Source: an uncultured Bacilli bacterium
GTDB lineage: Bacteria > Bacillota_I > Bacilli_A > RF39 > UBA660
Assembly (NCBI GenBank): GCA_934101225.1
Contig: CAKOQK010000001.1
Coordinates: 978-64,977, forward strand
Reading direction: 5' to 3'
DNA: 64,000 nt
The notes under the pieces: model-generated
What the model saw: the letters and a program-made list of their open reading frames with translations, nothing else
Databases searched by the model: none
Told to the model about the DNA's origin: nothing
In this document: positions 60,743 to 61,960 of the stretch, piece by piece
Layout: each line of letters begins with the position of its first letter
How positions within the stretch are numbered: position 1 is the first letter of the stretch
Position numbers and translations under genes: made by a program

Positions 60743-61609
60743 TTAATTAATATTTAATGCATTAATAATTTGTTCTAAATAATTTATATCATTAAATTCA
60801 CTAATTGCAAAACATTTTTTACCTAAATCTTTAAAACTTGCTCCACATGTATATAATTTACTTCTATCTAATACTATAAAACGATCATGAAATGAATTAT
60901 TATCTATAAACAGGGCATTTTTATATTGCTTGGTATATTTTTCTTTAAGAACGATATCAATATTTTTAGAAACTATAATAATTTTTAAATTTATGTCTTT
61001 AAGAATATCTAATAATTCTTTGCTAGCATAATTATCAATAATTATTATTTCATTTTTTGCTTTATTTAAGATATCTATAAGGATTGAATAAGCATCATAT
61101 ATTTGACCTTCAAAAAATATTTTCTTTATTTTTTGTTCTTTAAATGAATCTAAGGTATTTTCAAGTAATTGAATTCTATTTTCGTGATTTAACAATAATT
61201 CATTAGTGTTAAAATTATTAGCAAAATATCTTCTCATTTTAACAAAAGCATCAATGATTTGGATATTTACTTTAACAGCTATATCACTTTTAAGTAAACC
61301 TGATAACATCATAATTCCTTGTTCAGTTAGAACATATGGAAGATATTTGATATTATATCCTCTTAAATTATTACTTTTGTTTAAGGTTGCAAATTGTGAC
61401 CTTAAAGATAATCTATTGATTTCCTCATCCGTTAGTTGAAAGCAAAATGTACTTGGAAATCTATCTATATTTCGTTTAATTACCTGATTTAATCGCTTAG
61501 TTTCAATTTGATATAATGTAGCAACATCCGAAGATAACATTACCTGCACTCCTCTTACTTCAAAAATCATATTTTCTATTTGTTTATCTTTTATTATAAT
61601 TTCATTCAT
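60743..61609 (-). CDS. ORF6N-domain protein with a C-terminal HDRFIVLD...GASFKDLGKK domain
   Basis: 288 aa. The N-terminal block is VRGVQVMLSSDVATLYQIETKRLNQVIKRNIDRFP..FCFQLTDEE..LRSQFATL...YLPYVLTEQGIMMLSGLLKS, the ORF6N pattern. The C-terminal motif is common in such fusions. Confidence 0.7.
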   Translation of the reverse strand: MNEIIIKDKQIENMIFEVRGVQVMLSSDVATLYQIETKRLNQVIKRNIDRFPSTFCFQLTDEEINRLSLRSQFATLNKSNNLRGYNIKYLPYVLTEQGIMMLSGLLKSDIAVKVNIQIIDAFVKMRRYFANNFNTNELLLNHENRIQLLENTLDSFKEQKIKKIFFEGQIYDAYSILIDILNKAKNEIIIIDNYASKELLDILKDINLKIIIVSKNIDIVLKEKYTKQYKNALFIDNNSFHDRFIVLDRSKLYTCGASFKDLGKKCFAISEFNDINYLEQIINALNIN

Positions 61610-61638
61610 TAAATCCTCGTTTTCTATTATAAATCATG

Positions 61639-61960
61639 TTCAAGGTCACAAATTGTGACCTTGAAGAATATTTTTTAAGTATTTACACATGAGGTCGCAA
61701 TTTGCGACCTCAAATTTAGAATCACATTCTTTTCTTGTTCAAGGTCGCAATTTGCGACCTTGAAGATTATTTACACTATTATATTAAACTTTTGGTATAA
61801 TTTTTTCATCTTGAGATCACAATTTGTGACCTCAAGTTTGTACAATAAATATTAATTTTAGTATATTTCTTTTCTTTAAGATCACAGTTTATGACCTTAA
61901 AAGTTGAATAATCATACTTTATAATGATTTTTGTTTAAGGTCGCAATTTGCGACCTTAAA
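61639..61960. repeat. Array of six 23-27 nt palindromes (consensus TTYAAGGTCRCAA-T-TTGYGACCTTRAA)
   Basis: Copies at 61639-61665, 61690-61712, 61738-61764, 61810-61836 (one arm mismatch), 61875-61901 (degenerate) and 61934-61960. Spacing between copies is irregular, roughly 50-70 nt. A seventh, imperfect copy lies inside the ORF6N gene at 61380-61406. Confidence 0.9.

Follow-up and report, generated by a model that had tools for sequence, protein, structure and literature searches.

The DNA analyzed here, a stretch of 64,000 nucleotides from an uncultured Bacilli bacterium (the window), contains an ORF6N gene and, upstream of it in the same orientation, a gene for an XRE-family HTH protein. 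The two genes are separated by an array of short palindromes, and a further copy of the palindrome lies inside the ORF6N gene. A two-component system and an FtsX-type permease are encoded nearby; the locus is surrounded by housekeeping genes and belongs to an ordinary chromosomal region. Its features are as follows (offsets of palindrome centers refer to the ORF6N ATG):

60743-61609, minus strand: ORF6N gene, 288 aa (PF10543; PADLOC PDC-S05)
60746-61102, minus strand: codons of the C-terminal PLD-like domain, aa 170-288 (motif H241-D-R243-x4-D248 ... G256-A-S258)
61380-61406, no strand: intragenic palindrome, center 61393, +216, 11/13 pairs
61469-61501, minus strand: codons of the predicted HTH recognition helix, T37-N47 (TKRLNQVIKRN), from covariation and a homologue model
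61614-61631, minus strand: putative TATAAT hexamer (61626-61631) and GAGGA ribosome-binding site (61614-61618), read from the sequence
61639-61665, no strand: proximal upstream palindrome, center -43, 13/13 pairs, CA core (GTCACAA)
61690-61712, no strand: upstream palindrome, center -92, 11/11 pairs, CG core
61738-61764, no strand: upstream palindrome, center -142, 13/13 pairs, CG core
61810-61836, no strand: upstream palindrome, center -214, 12/13 pairs, core GATCACAA / TTGTGACC
61875-61901, no strand: upstream palindrome, center -279, 10/13 pairs, degenerate
61934-61960, no strand: distal palindrome, center -338, 13/13 pairs, CG core
61965-62222, minus strand: XRE-family HTH gene (HTH_3), 85 aa, upstream of the array

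The palindrome, (TTYRA)GGTCRCAAnTTGYGACC(TYRAA), is 23-27 nt long and two-fold symmetric, a single central base being flanked by arms of 11-13 nt. Six of its seven copies occupy the spacer from the XRE stop to the start of ORF6N, and one lies within ORF6N, as a preliminary description had stated, and all of them were recovered at or near the positions given there. The in-gene copy provides, on the minus strand, the codons for L69-N77 (LRSQFATLN), and its half-sites differ in their core, CA in one and TG in the other. The proximal copy ends 30 nt ahead of the ORF6N ATG, with 7 nt between its end and the TATAAT-like hexamer on the gene strand, and the distal copy starts 4 nt past the XRE stop codon. 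The left flank of the distal copy resembles the flank of the in-gene copy (repeat family D1, 79% identity over 56 nt). With its irregular spacing (49, 50, 72, 65 and 59 nt), units that lack an orientation and the neighboring genes named above, the array does not correspond to a CRISPR array or to the RNA repeats of a type III toxin-antitoxin system.

A scan of the 64-kb window for AGGTCGCAAnTTGCGACCT with at most three mismatches, for which the copy at 61875-61901 is too degenerate, yielded six sites, all inside one 580-bp stretch, where 0.00 are expected by chance (100 dinucleotide-preserving shuffles). No copy was found in the window outside this 580-bp locus, and the dispersal typical of REP/BIME elements is thus absent from it. 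The 376-nt leader has a fold z-score of -14.5. Four copies score as terminator-like, for which their AT-rich flanks alone are responsible; in-gene copies lack a T-run. Among the Rfam covariance models, the best match, to a microRNA model, reached 29 bits against a gathering score of 62 and is due to chance. A scan for consensus promoters gave 18 matches versus 17.6 in shuffles and was thus uninformative in DNA so rich in AT.

The window protein comprises an N-terminal winged-helix-like ORF6N domain, followed by helices and a C-terminal PLD-like domain. Its PF10543 match spans residues 14-103 (E = 2.9e-28; 98.4 bits, cut-off 27.8). Pfam detected only ORF6N and a weak Phage_pRha match, and no transposase domain; it found neither a ParB-type HTH nor an N-terminal CTPase domain, which excludes membership in the ParB/parS system. 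The PLD-like region, modeled at pLDDT 74-90, has a PLD fold, with Foldseek matches to NucT, Zucchini, PLD1/2 and the TrmBL2 C-terminal domain (E down to 1.9e-6), and the coiled-coil and PLD-like C-terminal part aligns with TrmBL2 over ~183 columns. The catalytic HxK(x)4D motif is absent: H241-D-R243-x4-D248 is invariant, with Arg for Lys, in 20 of 20 aligned homologues. The PDC-S05 profile PDLC04869 covers the full length of the protein (E = 1.3e-87), and this profile match makes it a candidate PDC-S05 protein, i.e., a single-gene phage defense; a PDC-S05 representative with a RhuM domain was reported to lower the plating of T7, T5 and T4 (10.1101/2024.09.26.614923). A sequence search of solved structures returned no relative, and the best fold match is the winged-helix-like domain of Dachshund/SKI (TM 0.56, E = 0.06). 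In a structure model built on a shallow alignment, confidence in the N-terminal domain was low, and a model of a canonical homologue served for that region.

The in-gene copy is not peculiar to the window. Two samples of ORF6N genes were picked without reference to the motif (genome GC 0.30-0.73), and 72/78 and 67/77 of these genes contain a palindrome with arms of 11-17 nt at one fixed position, to which the in-gene position of the window is homologous; control stretches of the same genes contain none (0/77). The suspected association of palindrome and ORF6N was likewise borne out among 128 exact-core genomic sites, 81 of which lie inside ORF6N genes or fragments and 26 of which adjoin one. 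Rare palindrome-forming codons had been suspected at the motif, and the effect proved far stronger than that: the codons are frozen as AGG (40/43), TCG (43/43), CAA (43/43), GCG (42/43) and ACC (41/43), whereas in the remainder of these genes the five amino acids are encoded by these codons in 13%, 13%, 54%, 27% and 35% of cases, respectively. The single DNA core is translated in two reading frames, as RSQ[IF]ATS or, in a second group of ORF6N genes, as VVANCDHL. Since this second group reads the same DNA as a different peptide, the DNA palindrome is the conserved object and LRSQFATS its by-product; the preliminary description, which treated LRSQFATLN as a protein signature that happens to be palindromic, reversed cause and effect. 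Recognition of the palindrome by its own encoded peptide was also rejected on the basis of the second frame. A few lineages (L121, L122, L144 and L186) have an intact protein and no in-gene palindrome. With its two mismatches, the in-gene copy of the window shows that the constraint is relaxed there; in the window's clade this copy is partly decayed.

A palindrome inside almost every ORF6N gene of bacteria and archaea has apparently not been described before; in the literature on ORF6N, PDC-S05, the DNA core and the peptide motifs, no description of an embedded palindrome was found. The domain is among the most widespread poorly known ones in bacteria and archaea, with at least 8000 scored candidates in each search, and is annotated only as “Rha-like” or “anti-repressor”. 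The latter label reflects remote homology, because canonical ORF6N is nearly absent from cultured phages (5 of 50,697 records). The 17-nt core occurs in 101 viral contigs, a count close to a rough chance estimate; only eight of these are linked to ORF6N, many others look like ordinary terminators, and in some the same stem is followed by a T-run.

The two arms have changed together. At 12-13 pairs, 90-100% of the combinations are Watson-Crick although both arms have undergone many changes, and the arm covariation score is 0.458 compared to 0.141 in shuffles, none of which (0/500) reached the observed value. The sense strand shows no excess of G.U pairs (22 G.U vs 39 A.C in genes; 50 vs 36 in extragenic copies). 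The central base is A (166) or T (155) and hardly ever G (4) or C (1), and it flips between A and T among close relatives with identical arms; an A/T-balanced center is a prediction of a dyad-symmetric site in duplex DNA.

The evidence for a protein partner comes from covariation between the core bases and the helix T-K-x-L-N-x-x-V-K-R-N of the ORF6N domain, of which residues 2, 3, 6 and 7 co-vary with palindrome bases -7, -5 and -4. The identity of residue 6 tracks bases -5,-4: in the first sample, Glu goes with CG (105/107), Gln with CA (24/28), Lys with TC (10/10), Arg with GC (10/15) and Leu with TG or TT (4/4), and a replicate on an independent sample of metagenome contigs gave Glu-CG 7/7, Gln-CA 23/23, Lys-TC 7/8 and Arg-GC 5/5. 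Arg at residue 3 is found with CG in 138/138 cases. Lys at residue 2 goes with G at -7 (165/168; replicate 27/28) and other residues with A (14/19; replicate 15/15). The bias-corrected mutual information with the core amounts to 1.07 bit for residue 3, 1.13 for residue 6 and 0.42 for residue 7, the maximum being 1.5 bit; more than 50 other variable protein positions, including the residues encoded between helix and palindrome, have at most 0.20 bit each. The residue-6 rule is kept in the second reading frame (Glu-CG 14/14, Gln-CA 5/5), and the helix-base rule holds between close paralogues. In the model of the canonical homologue, the co-varying residues are located on helix H36-45, which follows H25-32 (pLDDT 87-91 there), and the palindrome-encoded segment forms a low-confidence loop. 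Covariation and replicate together provide indirect evidence that the sequence of the site is specified by residues of the predicted recognition helix. Part of the association could stem from co-inherited blocks, because the helix is only ~35 codons away from the palindrome, but the intervening residues carry no signal. For the outer arms (-13 to -8), the sole correlation is with two residues in the loop beside the palindrome-encoded segment, and their complementarity despite varying sequence is left unexplained by the helix-base code. RNA pairing between helix codons and palindrome was rejected, as the codons are not complementary to the core bases. When the remainder of the protein is used for a tree, the helix classes come out polyphyletic (42 Fitch changes).

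These data favor, with reasonable though not high confidence, the prediction that the palindromes are cognate, two-fold symmetric duplex-DNA sites of the ORF6N protein, and the purpose of binding is probably negative autoregulation. Such a system could operate in the following manner: The second HTH helix of the winged-helix-like ORF6N domain would read the half-site G(G/A)T-NN-CAA, residue 2 contacting base -7 and residues 3, 6 and 7 contacting -5 and -4. A dimer, presumably held together by the long helix and, in the window protein, also by the PLD-like domain, would occupy both half-sites. One site would coincide with the codons for a loop that is poorly ordered in the DNA-binding domain; with a site built into the gene, protein and site are always inherited together, and autoregulation could work wherever the gene lands after horizontal transfer. 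In the window's clade, the upstream copies have multiplied to an array of 2-8 copies. The -43 copy could block the promoter or leader, and transcription might meet a roadblock at the in-gene copy at +216. The symmetry of the arms and the A/T flips of the center are probably maintained by template switching between the arms during replication; switching of this kind between short inverted repeats homogenizes arms and inverts the spacer (PMC8604942; PMC8794818; PMC13100816).

Extragenic copies across genomes agree with this reading in part. About one in six ORF6N genes has extra copies shortly upstream of the start codon, which end 9-14 nt ahead of the ATG at many independent loci; other extragenic copies are found 14-19 nt past stop codons. 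One locus that lost its in-gene palindrome (L144) has an upstream copy centered 27 nt before the ATG, and in another (L122) a copy at -143 resembles the terminator of the upstream gene (A-run before, T-run after). Matching extragenic copies accompany the rare Leu and Lys classes. The core class of an extragenic copy is not always the one predicted from the neighboring gene: upstream of Glu-type genes, the cores are CG (13), CA (6) and other (4). Some of the loci picked by a CG palindrome show another core in the adjoining gene. Orphan copies in other genomes, mostly 8-50 nt after the stop codons of unrelated genes, are not predicted by the autoregulation model.

Of the competing explanations, one holds that the palindromes have no cognate protein and act as hairpins of RNA or single-stranded DNA or as cruciforms, serving as 5' or 3' mRNA stabilizers, attenuators or terminators in the manner of REPs. 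It accommodates arms of 11-17 nt that co-vary by pairing past any plausible helix footprint, the strongly folded leader with its four terminator-like copies, the extragenic copies near start and stop codons, the orphans past stops and the viral stems with T-runs. It leaves the covariation of residues 2, 3, 6 and 7 unexplained, gives no reason for a center restricted to A and T in equal numbers, as an RNA loop would not require it, and is at odds with the rarity of G.U pairs, which are not in excess on the sense strand, and with the lack of an Rfam family; overall, it is unlikely. The proposal of REP/BIME-like RNA hairpins in the preliminary description did not hold up as the main reading, given the missing G.U excess, the A/T center and the confinement to one locus of the window, although orphans occur in other genomes.

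A different extension of the protein-based reading, to which we give comparably little credence, is that ORF6N and its embedded palindrome form a self-contained, horizontally mobile module with a simple readable code, perhaps with recognition of hairpins or cruciforms and with the array as a docking or sensing platform. The code would assign CG, CA, TC, GC and TG at -5,-4 to Glu, Gln, Lys, Arg and Leu at residue 6, and G or A at -7 to Lys or non-Lys at residue 2. Recognition of an extruded hairpin or cruciform would explain the long, perfectly paired arms. For ORF6N-PLD proteins, array occupancy might shift with supercoiling or replication stress during phage infection and thereby switch the effector on.

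The six intergenic copies of the window could instead be operators of the XRE repressor, in a pair of control protein and effector gene. XRE HTH proteins usually bind palindromes, the gene is directly upstream of the array in the same orientation, and its product gives weak matches to control-protein and antitoxin models. Seven related genomes contain orthologous arrays at conserved offsets, and XRE gene and array occur together in 7/7 orthologous loci. Among strains of the window's clade, the array varies between two and eight copies and fills the XRE-ORF6N spacer; the -43 site is conserved in L202-L207, and an orthologous -279 site is present in L201, L204 and L207. The linkage is, however, confined to the window's clade: among 259 loci, a tblastn search with the XRE sequence matched L201-L207 only. 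As the palindrome accompanies ORF6N in many phyla without an XRE neighbor, the XRE operator reading is unsupported; moreover, the palindrome classes follow the ORF6N helix, and strain L202 has kept just two copies, next to the ORF6N start. The XRE protein as owner of the array is accordingly quite improbable. Of the operator option in the preliminary description, which named either protein, the ORF6N half gained support from the helix-base covariation and the XRE half lost it with the clade-restricted neighbor.

A frozen accident, i.e., a single origin of the palindrome with arms renewed by template switching and synonymous sites fixed by purifying selection on the amino acids, has an equally small chance of being correct. 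Template switching is known to homogenize arms and invert spacers (PMC8604942; PMC8794818), A/T flips occur between close relatives with identical arms, and the four lineages mentioned above lost the in-gene palindrome with the protein intact. The explanation fails on the helix residues that track core bases, the fixed start-codon distances of new copies, the copy of L144 27 nt before the start and the A/T-restricted center. Sites of recombination or mobility (crossovers between ORF6N halves, inversion switches or a self-copying REP-like element) are the least probable reading: gene fragments start or stop at the palindrome, frameshifts cluster beside it, helix classes are polyphyletic, copy number varies among strains and orphans are dispersed, but no linked recombinase or transposase was found, neighbors are unrelated between loci (by inspection), and the ORF is intact in 8/8 versions of the window locus and in 120 near-identical proteins; the earlier suggestion of scars from shuffling of ORF6N N-termini found no direct support.

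Several known systems resemble the predicted autoregulatory one. The parS site of Bacillus subtilis and many other bacteria, a palindrome of ~16 bp that is bound by an HTH protein and conserved across phyla, also occurs inside spo0J/parB; the likeness lies in a palindromic site within the gene of its own binding protein and in its conservation across phyla. However, parS has no fixed codon position within the DNA-binding domain, and the majority of its copies are outside parB, whereas the ORF6N site is at one fixed position in nearly every member, in two frames. ParB is a CTP-dependent clamp that acts in chromosome segregation, and ORF6N proteins have no ParB domains. Autoregulated HTH repressors acting on palindromic operators, and regulators of the TrmB/TrmBL2 type, share with the predicted system a dimeric winged-HTH protein and a dyad site near its own start; ORF6N differs in that the primary operator would be inside the codons of the DNA-binding domain, with unusually long, perfectly paired arms of 11-17 nt, and in having no close solved structure. 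REP/BIME elements with their RAYT partners are similar as short GC-rich palindromes clustered at one gene, with dispersed copies past stop codons. A single genome contains hundreds of REPs, which are imperfect and species-specific, and RAYT belongs to the Y1 HUH enzymes, whereas the ORF6N core is cross-phylum and in-gene and its partner has no transposase domain. Template-switched inverted repeats share the Watson-Crick arms and the A/T flip of the center, but that mechanism is mutational and not a function: it explains the upkeep of symmetry, not why the core tracks the recognition helix.

If the predicted binding is correct, it provides ORF6N with a target in DNA and a recognition helix, along with an amino-acid-to-base code that can be tested. 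The design would be unusual, with the cognate site placed in the codons of the protein's own DNA-binding domain, in either of two frames, and a site within its own codons makes regulator and operator inseparable by horizontal transfer. The palindrome would also be a textbook-grade case of non-protein constraint, in which a “conserved protein motif” is shaped, and its synonymous codons are frozen, by selection acting on DNA; for motif annotation, it is a warning that LRSQFATS is a by-product of DNA rather than a functional peptide signature. Finally, it offers a lead on how the ORF6N-PLD proteins of PDC-S05 are controlled.

The lambda O gene carries the dyad-symmetric ori iterons, several sites to which its own product binds, in frame, in a tolerant linker, and these sites vary among lambdoid phages together with the N-terminal domain; the iterons form the replication origin. 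Some ORF6N genes likewise hold several in-frame copies (2-4, usually 42 nt apart). In contrast to lambda O, the window locus is ordinary chromosomal, and most ORF6N genes are stand-alone genes of ~180 codons without a replication module; no conserved neighbor genes were apparent, by inspection, in 145 flanking ORFs. Two tiny Segatella plasmids consist only of a Rep gene and ORF6N.

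The array in the window lies between two genes on the minus strand:

61965-62222, minus strand: XRE-type HTH gene, whose stop codon is the upstream border of the array
60743-61609, minus strand: ORF6N gene, whose ATG is the downstream border of the array

Six intergenic palindromes are centred at -43, -92, -142, -214, -279 and -338 nt from the ORF6N ATG, and a seventh, centred at +216, lies within the ORF6N gene, the locus with all seven forming a 580-bp stretch. Four of the six are perfect over arms of 11-13 nt (three with a CG core and one with a CA core, the core being bases -5 and -4, numbered outward from the palindrome centre) and two are degenerate; the in-gene copy has two mismatches and supplies the codons for LRSQFATLN. 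The number of copies, the tally of perfect and degenerate ones and the two in-gene mismatches all agree with the preliminary description. A scan of the whole 64-kb window found the element nowhere else, and shuffled sequence yielded none. Genes for a two-component system (histidine kinase and response regulator) and for an FtsX-type ABC permease flank the pair (58882-60724, 62313-63959). Housekeeping genes (hydrogenase, ThrRS, WhiA, GpsA) make up the wider region, which makes the pair an islet of two genes rather than a piece of a prophage.

The association of palindrome and ORF6N reaches far past the window. An exact-core scan for AGGTCGCAAnTTGCGACCT with one genome per species gave at least 120 loci, with 128 sites among the matches listed; they are spread over many phyla, candidate-phyla bacteria and one archaeon among them (GC 0.23-0.70). 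Of the 128 listed sites, 67 lie in a complete ORF6N domain, at LRSQ[IF]AT[SL], 14 in an ORF6N fragment and 26 about 25 nt to 2.3 kb from an ORF6N gene; 21 have no ORF6N in the 8-kb locus. Because this sample had been selected by the palindrome itself, two palindrome-blind samples of 80 genes each were drawn. The first used only the N-terminal peptide pattern KRLNEQVKRN: 72 of its 78 readable genes carry, in a constant place flanked by FMFQLT and LPYAFTE, a palindrome with arms of 11-17 nt. The second used only the C-terminal pattern LPYAFTEQG: at least 10 of 11 pairs are formed in 67/77 genes, and a control stretch of the same genes contains the palindrome in 0/77. Frameshifts or truncated genes coincide with the palindrome, or lie right beside it, in several metagenome-assembled genomes (loci L002, L067, L084, L107; L023, L113, L032, L060), through either misassembly at a hairpin or genuine breakage of a fragile site.

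Several lines of sequence evidence indicate that the conserved object at the motif is the DNA, not the peptide. The codons of RSQxAT are nearly invariant in 43 genes from genomes of 0.30-0.73 GC: Arg is AGG in 40/43 (13% elsewhere in the same genes), Ser is TCG in 43/43 (13%), Gln is CAA in 43/43 (54%), Ala is GCG in 42/43 (27%) and Thr is ACC in 41/43 (35%). A perfect GGTCGCAAnTTGCGACC is retained by clostridial homologues whose genomes have 24-29% GC. A second ORF6N group encodes (E)VVANCDHL at this position by GTG GTC GCA AAT TGC GAC CAC, the same palindrome shifted by one base against the reading frame. Cores of other subfamilies, at the same gene position, always differ by compensating changes on both arms: GGTTCCAAnTTGGAACC (peptide RFQIGTS), GGTGCCAA...TTGGCACC (RCQxGT), GGTCACAA...TTGTGACC (RSQxVT) and GGTCGAAAtTTTCGACC. 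When 110 in-gene palindromes were aligned, 12-13 pairs proved to be 90-100% Watson-Crick, each with several pair types; G.U pairs are rare, and the arm covariation score of 0.458 (0.141 when shuffled) was attained by 0/500 shuffles. Some ORF6N proteins have 2-4 in-frame motif copies, mostly 42 nt, or four helical turns, apart (L006, L126, L149, L154, L180; also L012, L030, L088, L099, L114). In the model of a canonical 171-aa homologue, the palindrome-encoded residues finish helix H60-69 and enter a low-confidence loop, which fits a segment tolerating whatever the DNA dictates.

A candidate reader of this DNA is found in the ORF6N domain itself. Its segment D-L-A-x-L-Y-G-V-x-T-K-x-L-N-x-x-V-K-R-N forms a helix-turn-helix in the canonical-homologue model (H25-32, turn, H36-45; pLDDT of the region 87-91). 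The second helix was numbered from its Thr, and in about 190 distinct genes its residues were set against those palindrome bases that vary.

Helix residues and palindrome bases (genes with the pairing / genes with the residue)
Residue 6 Glu: CG at -5,-4, 105/107
Residue 6 Gln: CA at -5,-4, 24/28
Residue 6 Lys: TC at -5,-4, 10/10
Residue 6 Arg: GC at -5,-4, 10/15
Residue 6 Leu: TG or TT at -5,-4, 4/4
Residue 3 Arg: CG, 138/138
Residue 3 Val: CA, 15/16
Residue 3 Asn or Ile: TC, 16/18
Residue 2 Lys: G at -7, 165/168
Residue 2 non-Lys: A at -7, 14/19

Mutual information with the core (entropy 1.5 bit), corrected for sampling bias over 91 protein positions, is 1.07 bit for residue 3, 1.13 bit for residue 6 and 0.42 bit for residue 7; more than 50 other variable positions each have at most 0.20 bit, and the 16 residues encoded between helix and palindrome at most 0.13 bit. 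Positions 2, 3, 6 and 7 share one face of an α-helix. The pairings recurred in 43 genes sampled independently from metagenome contigs, both for residue 6 (Glu-CG 7/7, Gln-CA 23/23, Lys-TC 7/8, Arg-GC 5/5) and for residue 2 (G at -7 in 27/28 genes with Lys, A in 15/15 with non-Lys). They match the usual amino-acid-to-base preferences, namely Glu for C, Gln for A, Lys or Arg for G on either strand, and Leu for T.

Within-protein co-evolution is not the explanation, since the pairings are kept in the second reading frame (Glu-CG 14/14, Gln-CA 5/5), where the peptide is different. Plain linkage or shared descent would not pick out positions 2, 3, 6 and 7. The helix classes are dispersed on the tree of the remaining protein; two Flavobacterium genes, 89% identical outside the helix and palindrome segments and with the same outer arms, differ in class, as do two paralogues of one Omnitrophota cell, one gene of each pair being Val/Gln-CA and the other Arg/Glu-CG. 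Most likely, the palindrome is read in double-stranded form by the ORF6N helix-turn-helix, each gene carrying the site that fits its own protein. Of the three explanations offered earlier, it is the first, operator sites, that finds support, for the ORF6N protein and not for the XRE protein.

The centre base argues in the same direction. In 326 perfect palindromes it is A in 166, T in 155, G in 4 and C in 1; for a dyad-symmetric duplex site one expects an A.T pair that may face either way, whereas an RNA loop would not give a centre restricted to A/T and evenly split. Nor would the peptide impose the restriction, as the protein would take Val/Leu there as readily as Ile/Phe. Among close relatives the centre flips between A and T with all 26 arm bases identical (in-gene in L209-L222, L241, L245 and L247; at -92 and -142 in L201-L207, against window positions 61701 and 61751), and in-gene flips toggle the protein between RSQIAT and RSQFAT. 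The flip looks like spacer inversion by template switching, a replication process that makes inverted-repeat arms alike and inverts the spacer (PMC8604942, PMC8794818); it may be the source of both arm perfection and centre flips. The arms, at 11-17 nt, are paired well beyond a helix footprint. Across all ORF6N loci, the only correlates of outer-arm bases -13 to -9 are two loop residues that adjoin the palindrome-encoded segment and precede the Phe of FTE by 6 and 5 positions (R/K and Y in GGRRY or HRKY), with up to 0.87 bit of mutual information; this could be a wing contact or mere subfamily structure.

In the first palindrome-blind sample, 13/78 genes have one or more extra upstream palindromes and 5/78 have one 14-19 nt past the stop codon; upstream copies typically have their 3' edge 9-14 nt short of the ATG. 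In one Desulfobacterales gene the single internal copy is accompanied by five upstream and two downstream, and the arms differ from copy to copy. Class match between extra copies and gene is good, not perfect: cores upstream of Glu-type genes are CG 13, CA 6 and other 4, those upstream of Gln-type genes CA 9 and CG 5, and the rare Leu and Lys classes have matching extra copies. Two genes that have lost the in-gene copy have one upstream: in L144 it is centred 27 nt before the ATG, and in L122 it lies at -143, flanked by A- and T-runs that suggest the terminator of the upstream gene. Orphan exact-core palindromes, without ORF6N in 8 kb, are mostly 8-50 nt past stop codons of unrelated genes (L003, L008, L039, L040, L042, L046, L058, L072, L081, L117-L119), some of them between convergent genes, as with terminators or REP elements. 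Many viral contigs of ~35% GC without nearby ORF6N contain the stem GAGGTCGCAAnTTGCGACCTC followed by a T-run, an apparent terminator (L260-L360, e.g. L261, L267, L277), in a total close to a rough chance estimate.

The window locus, from uncultured gut Bacilli/'Tenericutes', and its seven orthologous loci (L201-L207) share the array offsets (-43, -92, -142, ...), with 2 (L202) to 8 (L203) copies and base changes on both arms together (GGTCGCAA, GGTCACAA, GATCACAA, AATCACAA). Helix residue 6 is polymorphic (Glu or Gln) in these strains, whose arrays contain CG as well as CA cores. Two types of arm, TTCAAGG and TTTGAGG, alternate at intervals of ~49-50 nt (L201-L207 and window, 61610-61965), suggesting tandem duplication of a ~99-bp unit.

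The window protein consists of the ORF6N domain, helices and a C-terminal PLD-like domain (aa 170-288, 60746-61102), confidently modelled, with best fold matches to NucT, Zucchini and the C-terminal part of TrmBL2. In its invariant motif HxR(x)4D ... G-A/S-S-x-K-D, Arg replaces the catalytic Lys of HxK(x)4D; being like both nucleases (NucT, Zucchini) and the non-catalytic TrmBL2 domain, it could be an effector or a sensor. The full-length protein matches the PADLOC candidate defence family PDC-S05, of which a different member protects against phage according to a preprint (10.1101/2024.09.26.614923). Canonical ORF6N proteins have about 170-200 aa (domain, one long helix and conserved tail), are almost absent from cultured phages and have no conserved neighbour genes obvious by inspection; in those of ~175 aa the tail after the long helix reads PP-x3-K-R-K-I-G-F (proteins P0241-P0360). 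No solved structure is related to ORF6N by sequence, and none convincingly by fold.

Single-HKD PLD domains and long helices usually dimerise, and a dimer would occupy the palindrome dyad. The -43 copy lies directly upstream of a putative TATAAT-like hexamer and ribosome-binding site, and the +216 copy in the path of RNA polymerase; on these sequence-based grounds, negative autoregulation travelling with the gene is probably the simplest purpose. An extruded hairpin or cruciform may also be bound, the duplex of the hairpin stem being identical in sequence to the half-site. Ordinary autoregulated HTH repressors offer a functional parallel by analogy; the closest parallels are parS in spo0J/parB and the ori iterons in gene O of lambda, which the ORF6N palindrome resembles in lying within the gene of its predicted binding protein. 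In the paper library searched, no account of the embedded palindrome turned up under ORF6N, its DNA core or the motif peptides. Three features are apparently new: (i) a site that keeps a single position within the sequence coding for the DNA-binding domain, across a huge family, (ii) its reading in two frames and (iii) a legible residue-to-base code. The only genes on two tiny Segatella copri plasmids (L361, NZ_CP152354.1, 2955 bp; L362, NZ_CP152486.1, 4140 bp) are one for a replication initiator and one for ORF6N, the latter with in-gene cores GGTCGAAAtTTTCGACC and GGTTATCAAAaAATTTGATAACC; there, ORF6N may have a role in copy control or maintenance.
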